Both the position numbers and the translations under genes were made by a program. This document shows positions 8,801 through 33,343 of a DNA stretch of 64,000 nt, in pieces; the stretch's first letter is position 1, and each line of letters begins with the position of its first letter. The DNA comes from a virus. Location: IMG/VR virus record IMGVR_UViG_3300045988_176686; one strand, given 5' to 3'. The notes beneath the pieces are model-generated. The model was not told the origin of the DNA. It made no database searches and saw nothing but the letters and a program-made list of their open reading frames with translations.

Positions 8801-11307
8801 TCAGTAATTTCACCTTGCACTGGAGCATATTTATTGATAATTTGTCTATCAGTATGACGAGCCGAACGTGCTTGCATGATATAACGCAGCGCATAAAAGA
8901 GTCGTTGGTCTTCAGGAGCCATTTTCTGTTTTGCTTCTGTAGTATATCCGCCCGCCATACTGTTATTATATATGGCGGTACGAGTTGTAGCTTCCTTATC
9001 TCCTCTCTTTATTGAAGCTAAAACGGCAGCTGCGTGTTTAGAGCCAAATCGTTTTGCAAGGGTACCAATAATATAGCTCATACTTTTAGAGCTATTATCC
9101 TCCTCAAAACCCTTCAAAACGCTTGTACCAAAACCAGCTGGAGCGACTTTTTCATATTCACCCAATCTATCAAGAGCCCATCCCGCACGAGGTTTAAGAT
9201 ATTTATTACGATCCTCTTGCATAGATTCCAAGTAAATTTTTGCTTGAATAGCCCTTGATGCTTGTCTATAAGATTCAGCCAAATCCAGTACAGCACCATT
9301 TTCCTTCTTCAGGTTTTTAAAGTATTGTCCGAATTTGTCATTATAGATCTTCATTGCAGCACTATATTCTTTCGACCCTTTCTTGGCATTCCGAATGGCA
9401 TTATAATAAGCATCCAGTTCACCTTGCGCTTGGTTTGCGTTTTTCTTAACACCTTCAAGCGAACTATTGAACCTATCCACTGATTCTGTAGCATCATCTG
9501 TCTTTTTAACAAGGCTATAAACCCACACGCCAAGTTCAGCCACAAGCGAAATTGCAAGACCAATTACATTTGCCTTCATAGCCAAACTTAGTTCTCTCCA
9601 CTGAATCTTCAAAAGGCGAACCGCGGCAGCATTGCCAGTAACAGCCAGTGTAAGTAAATAGAAAAAACCAACTATGCCGCTACCAGATACACCTACCATT
9701 AAAGGTATTAACTTTGAAAAAGCCCACACCAGACCCCTCGTACCCAGATAAAGCACAAGTCCTGGGAGTATAGTAAGAAGAGCTTCAAAAGAGGTTTTTA
9801 TTTCCCAAAGAAGGATTTTTACAGACCCCATAAAAGGCATCGATTGCGTAAGCGTTTTAGAAAAATCGTACCAAGCCTTTGCAATTTCCTTCACCACGTC
9901 TATGCCGTCAGGATTTACAAAAGCCTTACTCCACATATTATTTGCACGTTCAAGCAATGCTTGTGCGGTTTCTTGCTGAATGGCGTATTCCTTTTGTACA
10001 GCAGTGGCATCCTCATAAGCTTCGCTCGATTCTTGCAAATGCGATTTCAGCACATCTACATTCTGTGCCATAGTCACAACCACCTGTTTCAGTCGCTGAC
10101 CATCCGAACCAAACTCCTTGAAATACGCATCCATAGAGTTTAAGTTTTTGTTGCTCACATGTTCGAGTACTGTTACAAGAGCCTGCATGGTCTGCCCCTT
10201 CTCCATCATGCCCTTCAACGAATCCTCTTGCATGCCCAGCATCTTCTCAATGTCATGGTAATTCGTCCACAAACTGCTTATCAATTTACCAAAAGCAGTA
10301 CTTGCCACTTCAGGCATCAACATCAAAGAGTCACTGGCAGAAGCAAGACCAAGGAGCTGGTCGCTCGTGATATGCGACACCTTAGAAAGACCTGTCAAGC
10401 GTTTTGCAAATTCAAGGATGTTGTTACCATTCGCAGTAGAAGTTGAAGCCAATTTGAAGATAGAACTTGATACAGCATCGAAGGCACTACTAATGTTACC
10501 GCCATGCTTCTCTACCTCGCCCATTGTTTCAACAAACTTAGACAAGGTAAGCATAGCATCGTCACCCAAATCCTCCTTCAAAGCTACATTCACGCGGTCG
10601 CTCGCTTGGGCAAATTCAGCCAAACCTTCAGCTCCATATTTACCCATACCCATACGAGAACCCACATACGCCAACTGTGTCAGCCCTTCGAGAGAAGTTC
10701 GGCTATCCACCTTTGCCAACATACGCGACAAGTCGTTCACAGAGTCCATTGATAGGTTACTCACCTTGCGCACATTCGCCAAAGAATCGGAATATTGAAA
10801 ATTCAATTTCAGTACATCAGTTAATTTCGACTTTATCATATTAAACGCACCAAACAACCCCACATAAGCCGTAAGGTTTTTCATAGCGGTACTCCATGCG
10901 CCGCCTTGCTTGTGAACCGAGCCTGAGAGTTTGTCTATTTGGGCTTGAAGGGTTTTTACGTCCTGTTGCTTCTTCTTTAAGTTCGGATCATCTTGAAAGG
11001 TGGTGCCAAGAACCTTTTTCGCAGATGCAAGGGCTGTGCGCAATTTACGAAGCGAAGTGGTGGAAAGATTATCAATAGCATGTTTCACACGCTCTTCGTC
11101 CGTGATATTTTGCGAAATTGCCGAATTATAAGAAACCAGTTCTTTCTTCAGTTTGTTAAACTCTCGCCTTCCTTTTGCGGTCGTCACGTCGAGCGCAGCC
11201 ATTTTTTGTTTAATGGCATCGGTGCGCTGTGCTAACTCGTCCATAACCTTTTTGGCTACGGCAGCATTGGCAGTAATGACAATTTGAGTTTTCTTTGATG
11301 TTGCCAT
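5890..11307 (-). CDS. phage tail tape measure protein (TP901-type N-terminal domain)
   Basis: 1805 aa; N-terminal third fits tape-measure domain pattern (GLAEFAQASDRVNVAL, FAKRLTGLSKVSHITSDQLLGLASA), central hydrophobic helices, long coiled coils, C-terminal VAENGPELVIGRE. Confidence 0.85.
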   Translation of the reverse strand: MATSKKTQIVITANAAVAKKVMDELAQRTDAIKQKMAALDVTTAKGRREFNKLKKELVSYNSAISQNITDEERVKHAIDNLSTTSLRKLRTALASAKKVLGTTFQDDPNLKKKQQDVKTLQAQIDKLSGSVHKQGGAWSTAMKNLTAYVGLFGAFNMIKSKLTDVLKLNFQYSDSLANVRKVSNLSMDSVNDLSRMLAKVDSRTSLEGLTQLAYVGSRMGMGKYGAEGLAEFAQASDRVNVALKEDLGDDAMLTLSKFVETMGEVEKHGGNISSAFDAVSSSIFKLASTSTANGNNILEFAKRLTGLSKVSHITSDQLLGLASASDSLMLMPEVASTAFGKLISSLWTNYHDIEKMLGMQEDSLKGMMEKGQTMQALVTVLEHVSNKNLNSMDAYFKEFGSDGQRLKQVVVTMAQNVDVLKSHLQESSEAYEDATAVQKEYAIQQETAQALLERANNMWSKAFVNPDGIDVVKEIAKAWYDFSKTLTQSMPFMGSVKILLWEIKTSFEALLTILPGLVLYLGTRGLVWAFSKLIPLMVGVSGSGIVGFFYLLTLAVTGNAAAVRLLKIQWRELSLAMKANVIGLAISLVAELGVWVYSLVKKTDDATESVDRFNSSLEGVKKNANQAQGELDAYYNAIRNAKKGSKEYSAAMKIYNDKFGQYFKNLKKENGAVLDLAESYRQASRAIQAKIYLESMQEDRNKYLKPRAGWALDRLGEYEKVAPAGFGTSVLKGFEEDNSSKSMSYIIGTLAKRFGSKHAAAVLASIKRGDKEATTRTAIYNNSMAGGYTTEAKQKMAPEDQRLFYALRYIMQARSARHTDRQIINKYAPVQGEITDYVNSLSDGDETLVPDHKKKHNKKDDKLREQEQSAKARANALVSNIKAFYEEQKRKYLEWVTTMNADGEKVSDGQQQQMLDYIDTRMSTALGKAKQSIAKNSDEWEKFLQEMPIKDMMVKTDETSKDLIEAMKGSNIKELHDLFEKLSGDLSKENHQTLSENLGALLDQIFANGSKELREAAEKLLAQQREIQKILNENDYTGAVNRDTRSNFDKLGFLQPAKGLRADSSSGLQQMSESFDALTTKARASVTELYKLNPASDTFKSDFLEYLSVANEGFDFSALNVQKLKALYYELIKYTESYTEAEKQQYDKAKKIIDFDWSKKARNKEVQDCIKLIEMQQKMYGKQSTFGSNLGLTDIKNDPEIALMKARMQAAEDYYAFVKQNTNNQKLREEAERARYEAELAYVNQVAASMKERLSQMKSFVQPIEDFGAAVGQALATMKDDAKSANEAIKSALKSMLESWSKMALDDVNKQMWQAINNAGVKNANDKAKPDIKAARMASAKAASNGELNIPSDLGTAANPIHAIIDVMPLGNLGLEDKNGNPTGVPYAESEDHKNVKPVSTEHSPSGKTGNAPASPTTAVLPTTTNVASQTGEAAASVATGQYSFGEAAAGMAGSVIGAIMNTDFGSKQSRREKREQRKQQREAKKHQKELTKETKQGVKERETINKKGNKEITKSTEEESKAQVKTEELKQNTTNAIVDTALNTNFQLKKNNDQQVVEQSKNTAQAENTFSIVGAVGKCFEFLGPIAGPIAAAAVMALLTGLMQWGLNAAFGGGKNKSNNSSSKNTKLVSGMLTYDSGNVQDMKPFVGDNGEIYWAKEQYKPKSGVNLLTTPTATTINGQRALVAENGPELVIGRETTKAMMMNNPSLLKALVNYDANYSGRNAARRAFDEGNLAEALGNLSSGASATDGLIADSRAANTALITAINTLMQRLDQPIHAKIDMYGRGNLYDSMSKANQFMKGKS

Positions 11308-23216: not shown

Positions 23217-23416
23217 AATGTTTATAATGTTTTTTTGGGGGGGGGTAGTTTTGTTGTCGTTATATCGTCACTTGTTTAATCATAATCGGGCAGTCGCTCC
23301 CATTCGGTCTTGCGAAGTAACAAGCCTTGTGCATGTTTTGCATGTCTCGCTCCGTATGCGACAGGGCAAAGCGCAAACAAGCCTTGCGCTCCTTGCAGCC
23401 TTGCCCGTCGCATGAT

Positions 23417-23953
23417 TTAATCTTGCTCATTTTCGTCAAGCTCTTTTATCAGTTGCTCGTAGCTCTTGGTGGTGCCTACCAATCGTTCGGTAGCTTTGGA
23501 TAGGGGGAGAACTTGTCGCCAAGTGTATTTGTGGCGTCCTGGACCGTAAAATAGCACATCACCATCAGTATTCTTTCCTGCACAGGCCAAAACATTCCAA
23601 GGTCCATTATCGTCATCTCTCACCAAACAAGGTTGCCACTTTTGCGGCACAAAGTTGGAGTAGTTGCGGAAGTAGGTGGGGACTTTAATATGGAGGTCTA
23701 AATCTGTATCCTTGGTAATATAATACATACCATTGCGCATAAACTCGCACACCCTTTCATGTCCATCTTTTATTTTCACCAAAGCTATTACGTTGGAGGG
23801 CGAGATAGGGCTTCTTTTATCCTCCCTATCTATGCAGATTATTCTTGCCTCGCGTCCGTCTCGCGTCACTATCTCTCCTTTCACTTCCTTGTTGGTTATC
23901 TTCTTCGCCAATTCAAGGTCGAAAGGAATGCGTTTAAAAAATTGATTATTCAT
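23417..23953 (-). CDS. hypothetical protein (paralog of 28784-29557)
   Basis: 178 aa; FKRIPFDLELAKKITNKEVKGEIVTR, KWQPCLVRDDD, LVGTTKSYEQLI conserved in both copies. Confidence 0.65.
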   Translation of the reverse strand: MNNQFFKRIPFDLELAKKITNKEVKGEIVTRDGREARIICIDREDKRSPISPSNVIALVKIKDGHERVCEFMRNGMYYITKDTDLDLHIKVPTYFRNYSNFVPQKWQPCLVRDDDNGPWNVLACAGKNTDGDVLFYGPGRHKYTWRQVLPLSKATERLVGTTKSYEQLIKELDENEQD

Positions 23954-24039
23954 TTTTTTATTGTTGATAGAATTTTAAGAATTGCATTTCAATAATGAAT
24001 ATTGATTACACAAGAACCGGCAATCAATATTCACTTTTG

Positions 24040-24276
24040 CTATTTACGTAAATTTCGATATTTGCCTTTGTTTATAGGCCAAAGCATGAATACGCAGAAT
24101 GCAACGGCTGCAAACACGACAAAAAACATGGGCAACCAAACGGGCAGTGTGATCCACCACCACGACCACTGCACTACGCCAGTGAGTTTGAGCGTAAGCA
24201 GGATGTAGAACGGAATGCCACCAAGGAGGTAGAACTTGATGGGATTTACTGGGAATACTTTTTTTACGTTTTCCAT
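24040..24276 (-). CDS. small membrane protein
   Basis: 78 aa, Trp-rich hydrophobic helices; its 5' end is duplicated (degenerate) at about 24468-24545. Confidence 0.55.
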   Translation of the reverse strand: MENVKKVFPVNPIKFYLLGGIPFYILLTLKLTGVVQWSWWWITLPVWLPMFFVVFAAVAFCVFMLWPINKGKYRNLRK

Positions 24277-24290
24277 AAGTGTTTATGTTG

Positions 24291-24452
24291 TTAGAGTTCA
24301 ATTAAGATTTTTATATGTTTCCACCCCACTATTGTGTGAATAGTGGGCGCAATGCCAAGGGGAGAGAAAACACGTCGCGAGTGTTCAAACCAACCATTAT
24401 AGGGCGGGAAGTTTAGGCTACCCACTACAAAGGTGTGAAGAGTGCGGTTCAT
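24291..24452 (-). CDS. mini-protein resembling core of C5-methyltransferase target-recognition domain (copy A)
   Basis: 53 aa MNRTLHTFVVGSLNFPPYNGWFEHSRRVFSPLGIAPTIHTIVGWKHIKILIEL; below ORF-track cutoff; synonymous-biased divergence from copy B. Confidence 0.5.
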   Translation of the reverse strand: MNRTLHTFVVGSLNFPPYNGWFEHSRRVFSPLGIAPTIHTIVGWKHIKILIEL

Positions 24453-24557
24453 GGGGTAAGTTATAAAAGTTTGAGCGTGAGCAGAATGTAGAACGGAATG
24501 TCACCAAGGAGGTAGGACCTTATGGAGTTACGGATTTTTTTCCATAAGAGGGTATTT

Positions 24558-24722
24558 TTAGAGTTCAATTAAAATTTTTATGTGTAGATTTCCTCCCCCC
24601 ATTGTGTGAATGGCTGGCGCAATGCCATGTGGAGAGAATACACGTCGAGATTGCTCAAACATTCTGTCGTAAGGTGGAAAGTTTAAGCTGCCCACTACAA
24701 GGGTGTGAAGGGTGCGGTTCAT
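24558..24722 (-). CDS. mini-protein resembling core of C5-methyltransferase target-recognition domain (copy B)
   Basis: 54 aa MNRTLHTLVVGSLNFPPYDRMFEQSRRVFSPHGIAPAIHTMGGGNLHIKILIEL; ATG in ATGA overlap with stop of ORF 24719-24970. Confidence 0.55.
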   Translation of the reverse strand: MNRTLHTLVVGSLNFPPYDRMFEQSRRVFSPHGIAPAIHTMGGGNLHIKILIEL

Positions 24723-24970
24723 ACCTGATTCCACCAAGACAAAATAAGTTCACCGTGGGGTGTAGATTTTTCATAACCATACCGAAGTCTTAAAAACTTG
24801 GCTAATGTGTCTACATCGGGAAAAAGTTCCTCTGCATTCTCAATACGCACGCCTACTTGTCCTTTTGCACAAGCCTCGGTAATATACTTTTCTACTACGC
24901 TGAGTTGGTCTTTAAACCGCTCTTCGAGCACATCTAAACTCTTTTGTCGTGCTTCTTTTGCTGTAATCAT
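24719..24970 (-). CDS. hypothetical protein
   Basis: 83-aa ORF with ATG start. Confidence 0.6.
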   Translation of the reverse strand: MITAKEARQKSLDVLEERFKDQLSVVEKYITEACAKGQVGVRIENAEELFPDVDTLAKFLRLRYGYEKSTPHGELILSWWNQV

Positions 24971-24990
24971 AATGGCTGGATTTTTAAAAA

Positions 24991-25467
24991 TTAGTGTTGC
25001 GTATTTTTCTTCAAGTGTTCAAAATCAGGAATAACCAATCTTAAAGTTTTTTCTCCTGGTCCATACGGATTGATAGCATCGATGAACATAAATTTTGAAT
25101 TTATTTGCTTTGCAAATGCTTTTATTCTTTTTATTTCGTCTTCGCGGTGGAAGCTAATGATGTGCATATTGTCATAGTCTAACGCAAGCATACAATCGCG
25201 ATGTTGCGCAAAATCGGGGAACGAATGCAGCATGCTGTTGTAATACTGGCAACCATGAATCCATTCGGGAATGAATGCTTGGGTGTAATGGTCGCCTTTC
25301 GCACCAATCACAAAATAGCATTCAAGCAAACGCTCGGCTGGGTAATAAGTCTTGGGTGCGAAGTAGAGCATTTTGCGCTCACCGTCCTCGTCGTAAAAAA
25401 GGCTATACACTTTGCCTTGGCTCAATACGCAAAAGTCGGCATCGCCTATCTTTACACCAGTTATCAA
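24991..25467 (-). CDS. hypothetical protein (frame stays open upstream to about 25650; likely longer)
   Basis: 158 aa from TTG; upstream in-frame coiled-coil-like LVAALTRRLGEKEKEYVELEERYAALSDACESLEKQL has no start; ATG 25657 is out of frame across a 6-nt A run. Confidence 0.55.
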   Translation of the reverse strand: MITGVKIGDADFCVLSQGKVYSLFYDEDGERKMLYFAPKTYYPAERLLECYFVIGAKGDHYTQAFIPEWIHGCQYYNSMLHSFPDFAQHRDCMLALDYDNMHIISFHREDEIKRIKAFAKQINSKFMFIDAINPYGPGEKTLRLVIPDFEHLKKNTQH

Positions 25468-25653
25468 AATGGGATGTTCGTTTTTTGCAATACATTCGCC
25501 TATCTTACTTAACTTGTATTTAGTGTCAAGTTGTTTCTCTAAACTTTCACATGCGTCTGATAACGCAGCATAACGCTCCTCTAATTCTACGTACTCTTTT
25601 TCTTTCTCGCCTAATCGTCGAGTGAGCGCAGCGACTAAATTTTTTGTTTTCTA

Positions 25654-25857
25654 TCATTGCTTTTCTGAGTTAAGATCTCGGTTCATTTGTTCGTGGAATT
25701 TGTCTAAGTATCGTTCCTTTTCTTTTTCCTTGTCGTAGTCGTGAGCGCAAAGAACAGTTTTAGTATTACCAAAATCGCCTTTTATGTAATGCTCACAATT
25801 AAAGCATACCAAAGAGCCGACTATCGCTTTTACACCATACGGGCAATCATATTCCAT
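25654..25857 (-). CDS. small Cys-rich protein
   Basis: 67 aa; CPYG...CFNCEHY...C pattern suggests a zinc ribbon. Confidence 0.55.
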   Translation of the reverse strand: MEYDCPYGVKAIVGSLVCFNCEHYIKGDFGNTKTVLCAHDYDKEKEKERYLDKFHEQMNRDLNSEKQ

Positions 25858-25970
25858 ACGCTCAAACGTAGATTTTTCAAAACGTGCAATGCGGCTTTCT
25901 GCCCCTTCAAGAAGAAAAGAAAGAGTATAGTACTCCTCGTCCGCTTCGTCAAGTCTTTTGTCGGCACATT

Positions 25971-26603
25971 TTAATTTAGAGTTCGCATATTGAGCTGTTG
26001 GGATAACTCCTCATACTTTTGTTGCAAGTCGTTATATTGCTCCTTAGCTTCGTCGCGTTCTTCGCGGACTACATTTAATTCTTTGCGTTGGAGGTCATGT
26101 TGGTTGAATAACGCTTCATAAAGTTTTTGTCCATGGTCGTATTGCTTTTTACAGAAATCACGATCGCGTTCCAACTCCTCCAACTTGTCAAGAGCTTCGG
26201 TCAAGTCGCTCACTGTGTGGTAGGAATTAATTCGCTTTACTAAGCGGTTGTAATCGTCCATAAGGTGTTTTACCCGTCCAACAAGTTCGTTGTTCTCTTG
26301 CTTTAGGTCGCCCATCATGGTAGCAAGAGCAATAAAACGTTTGCTTGCAGCTTCGGCATTTGTGCCGTAAAAATCTGCGAGTTTGCTATCCATATATTGG
26401 CGTTGCTCTTCGGTGGCAGGTTCGTAATGATCGGCAGTTAATTTACTACTATCTGGATTGAGAAAAACATGGAAGCACTTCGCCATGTCAGTGTAAGCCG
26501 AACGCAGAATAAGACCATCGGGTGTTACCTCGGCTACCTTATTGATCATGCCGTCTTCGGTGCGAACAATTACGTCGCCTGTTTTAATGTCTTCGATTTT
26601 CAT
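25971..26603 (-). CDS. coiled-coil hypothetical protein
   Basis: 210 aa; C-terminal 120 aa heptad-rich. Confidence 0.65.
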   Translation of the reverse strand: MKIEDIKTGDVIVRTEDGMINKVAEVTPDGLILRSAYTDMAKCFHVFLNPDSSKLTADHYEPATEEQRQYMDSKLADFYGTNAEAASKRFIALATMMGDLKQENNELVGRVKHLMDDYNRLVKRINSYHTVSDLTEALDKLEELERDRDFCKKQYDHGQKLYEALFNQHDLQRKELNVVREERDEAKEQYNDLQQKYEELSQQLNMRTLN

Positions 26604-26616
26604 TGTGAGTTATTTT

Positions 26617-26877
26617 TTAAAATTTAGTGTTTACGGTGGTGCCTTGCACTTTCTGCAAATCGGCAACGCGGGGAAGTCCTCTATCCAACTTCCGCTTCAG
26701 CCACACCTTGCGGTTGTAGCCATCCTCAATGTACACCACTTCCCATCCATGCTTTCCCTCTGCATTGAGTTTAGGCATAGGGTCTTCGTCGTTATAGATG
26801 ATGATAGATTTATATTCGAATGTGTGCATTTGTGGGTCTATTTCTATTATGTGAGGATAGTTGCTTTTTTGTTTCAT
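26617..26877 (-). CDS. hypothetical protein
   Basis: 86-aa ORF, ATG start, tight spacing. Confidence 0.6.
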   Translation of the reverse strand: MKQKSNYPHIIEIDPQMHTFEYKSIIIYNDEDPMPKLNAEGKHGWEVVYIEDGYNRKVWLKRKLDRGLPRVADLQKVQGTTVNTKF

Positions 26878-27249
26878 TTAAGAATGTTGCAAATCTAAGT
26901 AAGCTTGATATTCGGCATCGGCTTCTAAACTCATACAAGTAAAAACACGTCCTAAGATATAATGATTGATGGGGGTGGATAGTGGCGGAACGGGTGTGCG
27001 CTCTTTATGCCAGCTAATGGGAGTGTCATTTTCTCCGTCTTTGTCGTTACCATATTTTAGAAGGTGTATCAACTGCTTCTGCATGTAGTACGAAATTTCG
27101 TGGAAGGGTTCTTGTGTGGTATAACCATTCACCACATATCCACCTGCACAAAGTTGATAGCTCGCTCCATCCAGTTTGTGCTTATACAAGCGAATGCCTG
27201 CTTTTGCGCATAATGAGCGAAGTGTTTTTTTTGTTTGATATTTGCCCAT
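26878..27249 (-). CDS. hypothetical protein
   Basis: 123-aa ORF abutting next gene. Confidence 0.6.
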   Translation of the reverse strand: MGKYQTKKTLRSLCAKAGIRLYKHKLDGASYQLCAGGYVVNGYTTQEPFHEISYYMQKQLIHLLKYGNDKDGENDTPISWHKERTPVPPLSTPINHYILGRVFTCMSLEADAEYQAYLDLQHS

Positions 27250-27251
27250 AT

Positions 27252-27425
27252 TTATTCAAATTCATACACCACATAGGGTGTAGTGTTGCCTAATCCGTCC
27301 TCTTGGCAGGTGTGTGCACCACCCGTGGCTTGGGTTATGGCGTTGCTCACATCTGTCTTTTCGGGTCGCGACACAACTTTGCCGTCGCGGTCGCGGATCC
27401 AGCCAATGTATGTGCGTTTAGTCAT
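27252..27425 (-). CDS. small hypothetical protein
   Basis: 57 aa (MTKRTYIGWIRDRDGKVV...), below track cutoff; start overlaps upstream small ORF, stop 2 nt before next gene. Confidence 0.4.
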   Translation of the reverse strand: MTKRTYIGWIRDRDGKVVSRPEKTDVSNAITQATGGAHTCQEDGLGNTTPYVVYEFE

Positions 27426-27567
27426 AAGTGAGAAGTTTCATTGTGTGTTGCCCATGCTCATCATACAAACCTGCCCAAGCCTCGTAGCGTGAGGAGAGTG
27501 CGCTGGAAAAACCGTTCAAACGAGGAAATAGCTGAGCATCTGCATTGAAAGGTTGTTGGTTAATCAT
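27418..27567 (-). CDS. small hypothetical protein
   Basis: 49 aa (MINQQPFNADAQLF...), overlaps both neighbours by 8 nt. Confidence 0.3.
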   Translation of the reverse strand: MINQQPFNADAQLFPRLNGFSSALSSRYEAWAGLYDEHGQHTMKLLTYD

Positions 27568-27838
27568 ATTCTTTATAATCGCGTCCGTATTTAGCATAAT
27601 AATATTTGCGATTGTTTAGCCAATATCTATGCCAAACATTGCGTTCATATTCTTCTACGCTCATGCCTTGCTTGTAAATACCACTATAAAGTTTGTAGCA
27701 TTCTGATGTGCGATAACCAAACGAAACAGAAGAAACAGACTTACGCGATATTGTAAAATCGTTTTCAGTAGTAATACTCGTAATATGGGCGCACCCCTTT
27801 GCTATACTCCGTATCTTTCGCAATAGTTTACATTTCAT
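27560..27838 (-). CDS. hypothetical protein
   Basis: 92-aa basic ORF. Confidence 0.55.
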   Translation of the reverse strand: MKCKLLRKIRSIAKGCAHITSITTENDFTISRKSVSSVSFGYRTSECYKLYSGIYKQGMSVEEYERNVWHRYWLNNRKYYYAKYGRDYKEYD

Positions 27839-27934
27839 AAGCTACATTCTTTTTAATCATATTCAATCATCACCGCTGTAGCATCAAACCCATCATTACC
27901 CGTAGTAAAAATGGTCAGTAACTGGGTCACTCAC

Positions 27935-28783: not shown

Positions 28784-29557
28784 TTACGCTTTTACTTTAA
28801 TTCCGTAATATTGAAAGAACAAATCTTCAAATTGTTTTGCTGCATATAGTGCTGCTTTCCGACTGTTAAAGCGAAGTGGGAAACCGCCATCCGTGAAAAT
28901 TAACCCAGAACGAGTACACACCCCCGCACAGCGTACACCCGAAACACCCGTATCAGGCGCAACAACACAAGAGATGATGGGCCTAATACCCAGACTCTGC
29001 TTTTCCTCCTCACTCAGGCACGCAATATCTTCCTTGGTGTAGAACATCCAATATGGGGGTATGAGTTCTTCGTAGCTCTTTGTAGTACCTATCAAACGCT
29101 GGGTAACTTTTGAGATGGGGAGAAATTGCTTCCAAAAGTGTGTGTCTCCTCCCTCACTGAAAAATACCACTTTATCAACTACATTCCTTCCAGCACATAC
29201 CAAAACGCCCCATATATCATCATCATCATCTCTCACCAAACACGGTTGCCACTTGTCCGGCTCAAAGTTGGAGTAGTCCTCGTAGTAGGTTGGAATTTCG
29301 ATGTGGAGGTTATATATGTCTCGATCCTCTCTAAATATTTCTTTGCCATCGGTGTTAAAACACAGTACAACTTCGTAATCGCCATGTTCAACAAGAACTG
29401 CAAGGTCTTTTTTGCCTACGAGATATTTAAAATCGAAGCAAACAATTCTTGCCTTTAGCCCGTTCCTCGTTACAATTTGTCCTTCCACTTCCTTGTTGGT
29501 TATCTTCTTTGCCAACGCAAGGTTGAAGGGGATTCTCTTAAAACTTGTTTGTGCCAT
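28784..29557 (-). CDS. hypothetical protein (paralog of 23417-23953 with an 80-aa C-terminal extension)
   Basis: 257 aa; N-terminal 170 aa align to 23417-23953 product. Confidence 0.65.
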   Translation of the reverse strand: MAQTSFKRIPFNLALAKKITNKEVEGQIVTRNGLKARIVCFDFKYLVGKKDLAVLVEHGDYEVVLCFNTDGKEIFREDRDIYNLHIEIPTYYEDYSNFEPDKWQPCLVRDDDDDIWGVLVCAGRNVVDKVVFFSEGGDTHFWKQFLPISKVTQRLIGTTKSYEELIPPYWMFYTKEDIACLSEEEKQSLGIRPIISCVVAPDTGVSGVRCAGVCTRSGLIFTDGGFPLRFNSRKAALYAAKQFEDLFFQYYGIKVKA

Positions 29558-30554: not shown

Positions 30555-31294
30555 TCATCTATTTCGTCTACTCCATAAGCAATCGGGAGTTCGCGAATAG
30601 TTTCTGAGCCGTAGCTATCCTTTGTAAGACGAACGAACTCGCGGACGGTGGTGCTATCATCAAGGTTGATGCCCTTATCCTTGCAGAAACTCTCTCTGCC
30701 CATTCGGCATGAGCCAGTGAGAACGTGATGATAAGTGAAAAGGTCTCGATTGGAATAGGGCGTGTCGTAATTGGGGAACTTTTTGAGGAATGCTTCTATT
30801 CGCTCTTCTTCGGTGCTGCCGTCGTAGAGTTTTTCTTGCAGGGCAGCGAAGGCATCGTGCAAAGTTTCGCCATGCGCAAACTTATTCTGTTCCTTGACAA
30901 TGTAGCAAGGATGCAAGGTAAGGTCGCTGTGTAGCATAAAACCTTGTGCAATGTTGTCGTGAACTGATGTGATAATCGTTGGAATGTAATCTACGGAATA
31001 AACCTTGTTTCCATTCAGTTCCTTTATGTAACAGCCTGTGATAGAGCCATATCCACAACCCTCGCCATATTCAGATCCGTAACCAGCGCCATAACCATCG
31101 CCTTCGCCATCGCCATAGGAGTCGCAATTACCAGAGACACCGCCACAACAAACACTGTTGCCACGAGAAACGGCAGAGCCACATCCAGAACCAAAGCCTT
31201 CGCCATAACCAAATCCACCACCAGAGCCACGACCAAAACCATCGCCATAGGTTTTGCTCAGAAATGCTTTGATGCGAATATCTAAAGTTTCCAT
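30551..31294 (-). CDS. glycine-rich repeat protein with conserved C-terminal domain
   Basis: 247 aa; res 17-85 are G-x-G/GYG repeats with Cys; C-terminal half has AHGETLHDAFAALQEKL. Confidence 0.65.
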   Translation of the reverse strand: METLDIRIKAFLSKTYGDGFGRGSGGGFGYGEGFGSGCGSAVSRGNSVCCGGVSGNCDSYGDGEGDGYGAGYGSEYGEGCGYGSITGCYIKELNGNKVYSVDYIPTIITSVHDNIAQGFMLHSDLTLHPCYIVKEQNKFAHGETLHDAFAALQEKLYDGSTEEERIEAFLKKFPNYDTPYSNRDLFTYHHVLTGSCRMGRESFCKDKGINLDDSTTVREFVRLTKDSYGSETIRELPIAYGVDEIDE

Positions 31295-31578
31295 TCCTCC
31301 ACTCCTTCTATTGATTTGATTGCTTTGTCAGTACATGGAATGATTTCTATTGCATCAAGAATGGTAATGCTTTTTACCCTGACGGTAAACTTGCATTCGT
31401 CAGGTTTCGACGTGCCATCTGTGGCGAGCTGAGAGAGGGTCGCTGCTCCAGACCAAGACCAAATGCGACGTGCGTTATAAAGCGTAACTTCACTGCCGTT
31501 GTGTTCTGCAAGTGTTCCAAACTCTACTCCGCTGCGGTCGCCACGGATAATTACTTTTTTTCCAATGTTTAAATCCAT
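31282..31578 (-). CDS. hypothetical protein
   Basis: 98 aa; GDRSGVEFGTL...NARRIWSWSGAATLSQLA, a pattern common in phage genomes. Confidence 0.6.
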   Translation of the reverse strand: MDLNIGKKVIIRGDRSGVEFGTLAEHNGSEVTLYNARRIWSWSGAATLSQLATDGTSKPDECKFTVRVKSITILDAIEIIPCTDKAIKSIEGVEEWKL

Positions 31579-31685: not shown

Positions 31686-32999
31686 TTAGTCGTGATTAGA
31701 CTTGCGTTCCATGTTCTCTTTGAACAAATCTGCAAAGCCGTACCAAAAATAATTCATCCACTTGGGCGACTGCTTGAACTGCTCGTACATTATCTTTACT
31801 GATAGCATCTTCAAATGCTTCTCGCAATCTGTTATACTCTTGTGCCATCCGTCCCATTTCTTCATTTCTATCTGAAGCACTGTCTTTAGGAACATTGCAG
31901 CCTCGTGAGTAGGTGGAAGGTCGAACTGAAGGAAAAGTGCGGTGTCGGTATCATTGGCTTGCAAAAACTTTCGCACGGCATCATCTTTCAGAAAATAGCG
32001 TTCTGACACTTCCTCGTCTAACACATCCTCCAATCGCATCTGCAAGGGAAAGGCTTCGGGAAACTGATAGTCGAAAGCTACATCTTTGCGCATGGATAGG
32101 CAGAACACGCGGTCGCGGTTTTGCGGCACACCATAGTCCTTGGCATTGAGACGTGCCCAGCGGTTAACGTAGCCCAGACTTTCGAGTTTGGCGAGCCACA
32201 GCTTAAAATCGGGCATGAACTTTTCGCTTACCAAAGCTGCCACATTCTCTTGAAGCAGATATTTGGGTTTTAACACCGCCACGGCATCGGCTACGTGCCA
32301 AAGCAAGGCGGAACGTGTGTCACTACCCTCTTTCAGTCCCATTTGCTTTCCGGCTTGGCTGATGTCTTGGCATGGGGAAGAGTAAGTAAACAAGTCTACT
32401 TCGCGACCTTGCAGCGACTGCTTTACCTTGTGCCAATCTATTTTCGTAATGTCGCCTAACGCACGGACGGCATATTGCGGAAAAACGATGTTGTGCATTT
32501 GACAAGCATATTTGTCGATGTCGCTCCAACCCATGCACGTCCACCGAAAGTTGGGATGATCCTCGCGTAAAGCATCGGCTGCCATGAGTTGGGAATCGTA
32601 CCCACTAAAGGTGGTAATGATTACTTTTTCGCCTTCGTTTGTATCGACAGGCATAGAAGGCAAAGCGTCTTCAGGAAAGAAAGCATCGAACATGGATAGC
32701 TGCGCTTGTGGTTTGGGCGGTTTGGGGTACCACAGTTGGGAGTAGACGTGTTTTAAAACGTCAACACAAATACTATTTCCAGCTTGCTTGTATTGCTGAC
32801 TCACCGACACCGCCATGTCGGTGGGTTTGCCTTTGCCCTCAGTGCCAGGCATGCGCTCTGCTGCTTGGGCATTGGTGATTTGCATCACGTTAATCACGTC
32901 CTGACGCACACCCATCAAACGGAAGCATTCGGGGGGGGTAAGTTTTCGGATGGCATAACTCTTAATGGTGTGGTCGGTGAAGTTGAGTTTCGTTATCAT
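31686..32999 (-). CDS. C5-cytosine DNA methyltransferase, circularly permuted motif order
   Basis: 437 aa; IX RKLTPPECFRLMG (18-30), X YKQAGNSICVDVL (70-82), I TTFSGYDSQ (129-137), IV SSPCQDIS (207-214), VI QENV (250-253), VIII QNRDRVF (293-299). Confidence 0.85.
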   Translation of the reverse strand: MITKLNFTDHTIKSYAIRKLTPPECFRLMGVRQDVINVMQITNAQAAERMPGTEGKGKPTDMAVSVSQQYKQAGNSICVDVLKHVYSQLWYPKPPKPQAQLSMFDAFFPEDALPSMPVDTNEGEKVIITTFSGYDSQLMAADALREDHPNFRWTCMGWSDIDKYACQMHNIVFPQYAVRALGDITKIDWHKVKQSLQGREVDLFTYSSPCQDISQAGKQMGLKEGSDTRSALLWHVADAVAVLKPKYLLQENVAALVSEKFMPDFKLWLAKLESLGYVNRWARLNAKDYGVPQNRDRVFCLSMRKDVAFDYQFPEAFPLQMRLEDVLDEEVSERYFLKDDAVRKFLQANDTDTALFLQFDLPPTHEAAMFLKTVLQIEMKKWDGWHKSITDCEKHLKMLSVKIMYEQFKQSPKWMNYFWYGFADLFKENMERKSNHD

Positions 33000-33343
33000 T
33001 GGTTCTTGGGGGTTGAGGGTTTCGGCTTATCGGCAATCATGCTAAATCGGCAACCTTTTAACCACGATTTAAGATTGATGTTGCCTTTAATTTCGCCATA
33101 CTTGATGTTGGCGTCGCGCCATTCGACATACTCATCATAGGTGAGGTTGGCTTGAAGAACGAGTACCATTTCTTCGGGGGTGAGGAAGTCGGTATCTTCA
33201 AAATCGCACAAACCGCCAATTTCGTTGGCTACCCAATAGGGGTCGCGTAGGCTCTCGAACAACTGCACGTTCACAGCATTTGCAAGAGCATTGCATGCAG
33301 CGTAGAACTGCTGAATAAGTCGGGCGTTTTTAGATGGGTTCAT
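32996..33343 (-). CDS. hypothetical protein
   Basis: 115 aa; stop overlaps methylase start (ATGA). Confidence 0.6.
   Translation of the reverse strand: MNPSKNARLIQQFYAACNALANAVNVQLFESLRDPYWVANEIGGLCDFEDTDFLTPEEMVLVLQANLTYDEYVEWRDANIKYGEIKGNINLKSWLKGCRFSMIADKPKPSTPKNQ

Follow-up and report, generated by a model that had tools for sequence, protein, structure and literature searches.

The virus record IMGVR_UViG_3300045988_176686, of which a stretch of 64,000 nucleotides (nt; the window) was analysed, poses the question of why a phage should keep stand-alone genes of little more than 50 codons that resemble only the DNA-reading part of a C5-cytosine methyltransferase. Two such mini-genes lie in tandem on the minus strand at 24.3–24.7 kb, and a circularly permuted methyltransferase encoded on the same strand, 7 kb away, carries no target-recognition domain (TRD) of its own. 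We favour, with a probability of roughly 0.62, the answer that this methyltransferase core obtains its specificity subunits in trans, in the form of the mini-proteins, which would result in multispecific anti-restriction methylation. The two mini-genes, designated R (right copy) and L (left copy), are as follows.

24558–24722, minus strand: R, a 54-residue stand-alone TRD mini-gene, MNRTLHTLVVGSLNFPPYDRMFEQSRRVFSPHGIAPAIHTMGGGNLHIKILIEL
24291–24452, minus strand: L, a 53-residue diverged allele of R, MNRTLHTFVVGSLNFPPYNGWFEHSRRVFSPLGIAPTIHTIVGWKHIKILIEL

Both open reading frames (ORFs) are present with exactly the coordinates and translations that the first-pass annotation of this DNA had given. 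In the nr database they correspond to hypothetical proteins of a Caudoviricetes metagenome-assembled genome (DAI31104.1 for R and DAI31103.1 for L). For comparison, related loci were fetched from IMG/VR, 27 with the peptide as query and 80 with the methyltransferase as query; individual loci and proteins are cited below by L and P numbers, respectively.

Identity of the mini-proteins

A megablast search of the region against cultured phages found no match, and the sole matches obtained with tblastn against cultured phages were located in the TRD regions of the multispecific enzymes of the Bacillus phages phi3T, SPbeta, and H2, with E values of 2e-3 to 8e-3. A word-indexed protein search returned 20 relatives, all of them free-standing, 46–67 residues long, and 57–93% identical. 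The profile built from these 20 sequences was scored against 1.84 billion representative proteins, and this search retrieved 771 proteins at E ≤ 1e-3, including 87 at E ≤ 1e-10. The best 150 matches comprise 52 proteins of at most 120 residues and 73 of at least 250 residues. The large matches that were sampled are C5-methyltransferases of the family PF00145, each of which contains 2–6 tandem matches between motifs VIII and IX; they include P0028 (E 3.8e-22) and P0032 (E 2.3e-17), and P0034, P0036, and P0039 are further examples. The modules follow each other in P0039 as '...VVGNIEEGKWGKVTEMHQRVYSPKGIAPTITAQGGGNQEKKIML...VVGMMEGGKWDKVYNLSRCVYDPEGIAPTLV...KKIIVDD...IRKLTPTECWRLMGW'. Since the profile reaches PF00145 enzymes precisely between these two motifs, the proposed homology of the peptides to C5-methyltransferase TRDs is borne out.

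The ends of the mini-proteins coincide with the ends of the modules in the multi-TRD enzymes (the large proteins of the profile search), with a 'VVG' strand at the N terminus and a 'KIxV[DE]' strand at the C terminus. These shared boundaries indicate that a mini-protein represents one complete TRD module of the multispecific type. The TRD identity assigned to the peptides in the first-pass annotation thus stands, whereas their description as only the core of such a domain does not, since each of them is a whole minimal module. The best match of the profile in the PDB, residues 237–258 of M.HhaI (QGERIYSTRGIAITLSAYGGGI), comprises the DNA-recognition loops and is not significant when taken alone (E 0.49). 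A hidden Markov model (HMM) of the TRD module scores R at E 5e-23 and L at E 5e-15, with all invariant residues of the family retained in L. Neither peptide includes a conserved catalytic motif, the match being to the TRD module only, and neither lies within a methyltransferase polypeptide, each having its own ATG and stop codon.

The start and stop positions of the TRD mini-gene are kept across dozens of diverged genomes, and the ratio of non-synonymous to synonymous divergence (omega) within the peptide family, with a median of 0.31, is below 1 in 283 of 283 pairs. The earlier view of the peptides as free-standing genes constrained as proteins is in agreement with both this conservation and this purifying selection, and for the family as a whole the same two observations speak against decaying remnants of an ordinary methyltransferase gene.

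The permuted methyltransferase core

31686–32999, minus strand: 437-residue circularly permuted C5-cytosine methyltransferase core, matching PF00145 (E 2.8e-48) in two stretches

The polypeptide starts with motifs IX–X (residues ~15–90), followed by a linker, motifs I, IV, VI, and VIII, and the first half of the variable region (to residue ~356); the canonical order from I to X, with a TRD between VIII and IX in one chain, is not found in it. The individual motifs are IRKLTPPECFRLMG (IX), YKQAGNSI (X region), FSGYDS (I), SPCQD (IV), ENV (VI), and QNRDR (VIII). Positions 22–220 of the PF00145 profile map to residues 153–353 of the core, with IX–X at the N terminus. In the alignment with M.MpeI (PDB 4dkj), residues 112–284 of MpeI correspond to residues 187–356 of the core and residues 333–379 to residues 15–61, leaving MpeI residues 285–332, a TRD segment of ~48 residues, with no counterpart. 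A broadened TRD HMM found no module in the 437-residue protein either, and the claim that the permuted enzyme has no TRD segment is therefore upheld by both comparisons. By alignment, the N and C termini of the core lie exactly at the position of TRD insertion.

Residues 357–437 form a family-specific helical extension at the C terminus that is variable in sequence and exists in several alternative variants among the homologs; it has no similarity to any TRD or Pfam family. The family of the core comprises more than 7800 proteins at E ≤ 1e-10, mostly 435–443 residues long and encoded on gut-phage contigs of ~100 kb, and the catalytic motifs are invariant among 39 homologs. In view of the size of the family and of the invariant motifs, the core is considered to be a maintained and presumably active enzyme that appears to have no DNA-reading element.

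Some observations concern the gene of the core and its surroundings in other genomes. In the close relative L011 (289–1359), the methyltransferase is interrupted by an in-frame intein of 357 residues that has LAGLIDADG motifs and sits exactly at the catalytic cysteine of motif IV (YSSP|CFVAG...IVHN|CQDIS); Hint (intein) domains are also present in the multi-TRD methyltransferases P0028 and P0036. Bacillus phage Deep Blue (L116, NC_031056, 72102–77929) carries three consecutive genes annotated as DNA methyltransferases, with 420, 341, and 222 residues, and the permuted enzyme of the window aligns across the boundary between the first and second of them, to the C-terminal IX–X and then to I–VIII. 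A permuted gene could have its origin in a tandem of the Deep Blue kind, and the second and third of these methyltransferase genes may form a split enzyme. In the window, the methyltransferase start overlaps, as ATGA, a conserved 115-residue ORF (32996–33343, minus strand), and a 98-residue DUF6948 protein (31282–31578, minus strand) follows on the 3′ side; both neighbours are found at the same places in relatives, including L001 despite its methyltransferase deletion.

Mini-gene arrays in related phages

Of the 80 methyltransferase loci, 54 contain the TRD type found at 24.3–24.7 kb, without exception on the strand of the core and downstream of it, at distances of 0.4–10 kb; the co-occurrence of the peptide with the permuted core in related phages is thereby confirmed. 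Several distinct variable cores are found between the conserved end strands of this type. It is also not the only mini-gene in these loci. Mini-ORFs of L031 and L096 adjoin the stop codon of the methyltransferase or overlap it, and further overlapping mini-ORFs flank this gene; their products end with a hydrophobic strand followed by YE, YD, or EL. When this C-terminal strand signature was applied as one pattern near to and far from the methyltransferase, it was found in 545 of 1330 same-strand small ORFs near that gene versus 32 of 6158 elsewhere in these loci (odds ratio 133), a contrast in localisation that is fair because the pattern, although fixed after examples had been seen, was the same in both places. 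From 2 to 13 mini-ORFs with the signature are present on the strand of the core in 79 of the 80 loci.

Clustering of the mini-proteins yields about ten major families. The HMMs of six of them (fam2, fam3, fam5, fam8, fam9, and fam16) match internal segments of the large multi-TRD proteins, with E values down to 2e-15, and all nine mini-families that were tested are under purifying selection, with median omega values of 0.11–0.63. Arrays of 6–14 overlapping mini-ORFs are found in L096 (9644–12200), L019 (5881–10150), L010 (4412–10162), and L031 (8698–10524), with some of the mini-ORFs upstream of the permuted methyltransferase and most of them downstream. The TRD type to which R and L belong is usually the last gene of the array.

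A scan of the window with the HMMs of all families gave exactly four matches, which are R, L, and two further mini-genes located between this pair and the core. The first-pass annotation had listed R and L, but not the other two.

27418–27597, minus strand: fam7 mini-gene, 59 residues from the ATG at 27597 or, more likely, 49 residues from the ATG at 27567, MINQQPFNADAQLFPRLNGFSSALSSRYEAWAGLYDEHGQHTMKLLTYD
27252–27425, minus strand: fam6 mini-gene, 57 residues, MTKRTYIGWIRDRDGKVVSRPEKTDVSNAITQATGGAHTCQEDGLGNTTPYVVYEFE

The fam7 start at 27567 overlaps the stop of a 92-residue ORF by 8 nt, and the fam6 start overlaps the fam7 stop by another 8 nt (TATGACTAA), both being chained through ATGAnTAA overlaps. 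The fam7 peptide matches its family HMM with E 4.8e-23 (omega 0.20), the family adjoins the core in 56 of the 80 loci, and its 137 homologs are all 47–78 residues long; for fam6 the corresponding match has E 6e-28 (omega 0.32), and the family is present in 49 of the 80 loci. The exact sequences of fam6 and fam7 recur on 32–34 other contigs. Neither of them had a match in a single-sequence PHROGs search or among the 73 large proteins, tblastn against phages gave nothing or chance matches, hhalign comparisons among the mini-families were mostly non-significant, and the profile search with fam7 found small proteins only. Because these families adjoin the core in 49–56 of the 80 loci, and because P0279 and P0288 are fusions of the methyltransferase with fam6, both mini-genes are regarded, on context only, as candidate TRD subunits.

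The close relatives L010, L013, and L019 have 8–14 mini-genes, compared with four in the window. It follows that, in the lineage of the window, most of the array was lost, unrelated genes came to lie between the methyltransferase and the mini-genes still present, and the last gene was joined by a second allele.

Divergence and origin of the tandem pair

The description of the tandem involves three features in addition to R and L.

24453–24557, minus strand: spacer between R and L, a duplicated and inactivated 5′ fragment of the membrane-protein gene
24040–24276, minus strand: predicted membrane protein of 78 residues, with a weak Pfam match to Tmemb_185A (E 0.0012)
24719–24970, minus strand: ORF of 83 residues upstream of R

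The units containing R and L are direct repeats, in agreement with the tandem duplication first described, and consist of matching segments of 21–128 nt with 80–90% identity and a start-to-start spacing of 267–283 nt. Tandem Repeats Finder did not report the R/L duplication, as expected for only two copies at ~80% identity. The 5′ part of the gene of the 78-residue membrane protein is present in both units and the gene is intact only in the left one, as had also been noticed at first; its remnant in the right unit is a dead stub ORF (ATGGAAAAAAATCCGTAA) at 24545–24528, followed in the spacer by the repeat D2 at 24468–24525 (repeat families D2 and D4). The spacer marks a recombination junction. 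The ATG of R overlaps the TGA of the 83-residue ORF as ATGA, exactly as reported before, and this 4-nt overlap suggests translational coupling.

The R and L peptides are 78% identical (tblastn E 4e-22). The Nei–Gojobori method counts 18.5 synonymous and 13.5 non-synonymous differences in addition to one codon indel, close to the first estimate of about 15 and about 11, and yields dS of 0.82, dN of 0.12, and omega of 0.15, a value which argues that both copies are under purifying selection. L differs from R in having VGW in place of GGG and in the deletion of one codon. The differences are found at positions 8, 19–21, 24, 32, 37, 41–42, and 44–46, nearly all of which fall in columns of high entropy in the family; the scaffold common to both peptides includes VVG, FE, RRV, G33, P36, T40, G43, and IKILIEL. 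Changes concentrated in variable columns on a scaffold that is kept fit an altered specificity rather than decay, and R and L may accordingly provide two specificities.

Tandems encoding the same two peptides recur in L124, L125, and L126, three more assemblies that each stem from a different sample and are 99.7–100% identical over the 1-kb tandem region. An assembly artefact is ruled out by this recurrence in independent assemblies, which indicates that the tandem is real and part of a circulating lineage; in three of the four assemblies carrying it, the ORFs of R and L were left uncalled by gene callers. In DNA alignments that also included L012, the R unit is almost identical to the single-copy relatives L009 and L010, whereas the coding part of the L unit is a different, diverged allele with a downstream flank that matches L010. 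A recent duplication in place is contradicted by this pattern. It was probably recombination in the 5′ part of the membrane gene, which both units share, that brought two pre-existing alleles together.

Variation of the mini-genes among relatives

The GGG codons of this TRD type form a poly-G tract, which has lengths of G6 to G11 in phages that are otherwise near-identical (L005 and L014–L033, at about 10130–10150). All 29 of 29 genes with a run of at most five G are intact, whereas 14 of 25 genes with a run of at least six are frameshifted or truncated. In the window, R has G6 (24592–24597), in frame, and L has G4. The tract could be a phase-variable on/off switch or a mutational hot spot.

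Fused forms are also found. The C terminus of the methyltransferase is joined to a fam6 module in P0279 and P0288, fam7 is joined to fam6 in P0314, and the 83-residue upstream protein is joined to the TRD by a frameshift in P0295. In addition, P0026 contains the N-terminal 36 residues of the methyltransferase joined to the TRD at a GTMQ/GMMQ microhomology. These chimeric products may be natural variants or sequencing errors.

Proposed assembly and alternative explanations

The reading of the mini-proteins as specificity subunits acting in trans is based on the core being without the module, and on the mini-genes being homologous to that module, linked to the core, constrained as proteins, and, as Rosetta-stone-like evidence, fused to the core or to each other in some genomes. 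A mini-protein would dock non-covalently onto what remains of the small domain in the permuted core through its conserved N-terminal strand (T-L-V-V-G) and its C-terminal strand (I-K-I-L-I-E-L), and would supply the DNA-contact loops, for which the stretch EQSRRVFSPxGIAPxIHTxGGG, aligning with residues 237–258 of M.HhaI, is the candidate. Docking of this kind could reconstitute, by fragment complementation, a methyltransferase producing 5-methylcytosine (m5C) in a sequence-specific manner. Different mini-proteins would compete for one core, so that phage DNA would be methylated at several motifs, and this methylation might protect it from host restriction enzymes, as with the single-chain enzymes of Bacillus phages. 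As a description of a whole, widespread group of human-gut phages, with one TRD-less permuted core programmed in trans by 2–14 interchangeable modules of ~50 residues that are shuffled by recombination, at least one of them being switched by poly-G, the proposal appears to us to be evenly poised.

A number of observations weigh against subunits acting in trans. The assembly of mini-protein and core is purely something that we infer from sequence, and the structure predictions lend it no support: an AlphaFold2 model of the R peptide fused to the methyltransferase, based on a shallow alignment that covered the methyltransferase only, has a mean predicted local distance difference test score (pLDDT) of 58, with ~23–26 for the peptide, and the peptide family alone was predicted as three β-strands with a pLDDT of 54. 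Single-sequence searches of Pfam and the PDB with the R and L peptides found no match. In the window, R and L are 7 kb away from the methyltransferase. L has His in the position aligned with Gln237 of M.HhaI (Gln24 in R) as well as VGW for GGG, and its start has no overlapping upstream ORF; this copy may be inactive. Among the relatives, L001 (482–787) has a clean deletion of methyltransferase residues 1–346 and still retains intact mini-ORFs of fam0, fam2, fam4, fam6, and fam7, with its copy of the window-type TRD gene truncated. L028 has lost ~3.9 kb including the methyltransferase and the array (L028 9508–9614 compared with L018 5629–9603) and keeps only the last TRD gene, in a frameshifted form, and in L005 and L020 the TRD gene is intact although no methyltransferase lies within 9–10 kb. 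No clear link emerged between an intact TRD gene and a methyltransferase in the locus: the gene is intact in 12 and disrupted in 9 loci with the enzyme, and intact in 2 and disrupted in 5 loci without it.

These same observations bear on the competing explanations. The mini-proteins might be real TRD derivatives that work independently of the phage core, whether as small regulators that bind DNA, as decoys or inhibitors directed at host restriction or modification enzymes, or as proteins that re-program a host C5-methyltransferase. Such functions would agree with the persistence of mini-genes where the core is deleted or is not found within 10 kb (L001, L005, L020) and with the distance of 7 kb in the window, and purifying selection shows that there is a function, not which one. 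We nevertheless regard them as unlikely, since the mini-genes lie on the same strand as the TRD-less core and adjacent to it in 79 of 80 loci, the segment absent from the core is exactly what the mini-proteins carry, fusions to the core are found in P0279 and P0288, and the Pfam search matched no DNA-binding or inhibitor family. Still less probable is the possibility that the mini-ORFs, or at least L, are debris of a broken-up single-chain multispecific methyltransferase, or a redundant product of recombination drifting to loss. The frequency with which relatives have this TRD type disrupted (14 of 25 genes with at least six G in the run), the VGW and Gln24 to His changes in L together with its lack of an upstream ORF for coupled translation, and the dead gene stub in the R unit would be expected of debris; omega values of 0.15 for R and L and below 1 in all 283 family pairs, starts and stops conserved in dozens of diverged genomes, the 29 of 29 genes that are intact at shorter G-runs, and the retention in L of every invariant residue, identically in three other assemblies, would not.

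The 437-residue enzyme may, on the other hand, be complete by itself, with its C-terminal extension (residues 357–437) serving as an unconventional TRD and the mini-proteins being accessory or unrelated. The ~80 residues in question are family-specific and occur in several alternative variants among homologs, as a specificity element might, and they are the best-predicted part of the weak AlphaFold model; yet the extension resembles no TRD or Pfam family, and the universal presence of an adjacent array of TRD-homologous mini-genes would be left unexplained, which makes this explanation an improbable one. We give the least credence to a single-chain enzyme in which a covalent link between the modules and the core, or among the modules, would arise, for example, from programmed frameshifting or from termination–reinitiation read-through over the overlaps of 4–8 nt. 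While ATGA and ATGAnTAA overlaps do connect successive mini-ORFs and some assemblies contain fused versions (P0279, P0288, P0314, P0295), the mini-genes of the window are separated from the methyltransferase by 4–7 kb that include unrelated genes, one mini-ORF and the next differ in frame and have an ATG each, the stop of each mini-family falls at a conserved structural boundary, and the fused forms are rare. Reassignment or read-through of stop codons was also considered and rejected, as successive mini-ORFs are in different frames and the long ORFs of the window are normal in translation table 11.

Comparison with known methyltransferases

The multispecific enzymes of Bacillus phages (M.SPRI, M.phi3TI, M.H2I, and M.rho11sI) have their TRDs contiguous in one polypeptide, between motifs VIII and IX. 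Like the proposed system, they are phage-encoded and combine one core with several TRD modules of ~40–55 residues, each thought to be responsible for one target; unlike them, the TRDs of the window are separate gene products, and the core is both TRD-less and circularly permuted. To our knowledge, the structural account of how one core uses several tandem TRDs was never settled. If the mini-proteins are indeed specificity subunits, TRDs available as separate 6-kDa proteins would make this question directly testable.

Splitting and circular permutation in the variable region, whether natural or artificial, are tolerated by C5-methyltransferases, the fragments of which complement each other (PMC5944983, PMC2836561). 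M.AquI consists of two polypeptides that result from a split in the variable region and complement each other (PMC5944983), as is proposed here. Both subunits of M.AquI, however, have catalytic motifs, with the β subunit comprising the TRD and motifs IX–X, whereas the small subunit encoded in the window would be a bare TRD, with many alternatives per genome and a gene not adjacent to that of the core; conserved motifs on both polypeptides, the mark of M.AquI, are not found in the window peptides. The heterodimeric M.EcoHK31I also needs a small second polypeptide (PMC2836561). In that enzyme, motif IX comes from the β subunit, the reading frame of which lies within the α gene but differs from that of α, and α keeps the TRD; in the window, by contrast, motif IX is in the large protein, the TRD is detached, and the peptides are encoded 7 kb away. 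The permuted enzymes M.BssHII, M.Alw26I, M2.Eco31I, M.Esp3I, and M2.BsaI share with the core the placement of IX–X before I–VIII and a break in the variable region (PMC5944983). They keep the TRD in the chain, mostly in the order TRD–IX–X–I...VIII, whereas the enzyme of the window starts after the TRD position and ends before it. The HsdS subunits of Type I systems offer an analogy only: a separately encoded, exchangeable, and sometimes phase-variable specificity polypeptide programs a methylase there as well, but the methylases are unrelated N6-adenine or N4-cytosine enzymes, HsdS has ~400 residues and two TRDs, and no relationship in sequence or fold exists.

Permuted enzymes that keep the TRD, split enzymes with a motif-bearing small subunit, and single-chain multispecific phage enzymes are thus already known. 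Full-text searches of the open-access literature turned up no account of single-TRD mini-genes that stand alone, whether singly or in arrays. If the proposal is true, the specificity of a C5-methyltransferase can come in trans from a module of ~50 residues, and the mini-proteins would be the C5-methyltransferase counterpart of Type I specificity subunits and the smallest known stand-alone DNA-specificity subunits. They would then be useful for programmable m5C writers, an application for which split M.HhaI, M.SssI, and M.EcoHK31I are already used. They would also constitute a new layer of anti-restriction in gut phages, in which specificity cassettes undergo reshuffling, loss, and possibly phase variation. 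Thousands of gut-phage contigs appear to carry the system. As the mini-genes are below common ORF cut-offs and were left uncalled in three of four assemblies, the methylation potential of phages is under-annotated.

Neighbouring genes and further observations

Sigma-70 promoter and terminator scans of the region 23300–27900 remained at background level, with 13 promoter-like sites (9.4 ± 3.4 expected) and 5 terminator-like sites (4.6 ± 2.4 expected). A search for the host among genome contigs returned only seven contigs from metagenome bins, with inconsistent taxa. A homolog of the 83-residue ORF that precedes R occupies the equivalent position in L001–L004 and L009–L012. The homolog of the membrane-protein gene directly follows the TRD gene in L001–L013, and the 78-residue membrane protein is a conserved downstream neighbour of the TRD mini-gene in the lineage of the window. 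The mini-gene region is flanked by two paralogous ORFs on the minus strand (23417–23953 and 28784–29557), encoding proteins of 178 and 257 residues that are 52% identical over 170 residues and have multi-copy homologs in the relatives L009 and L010.

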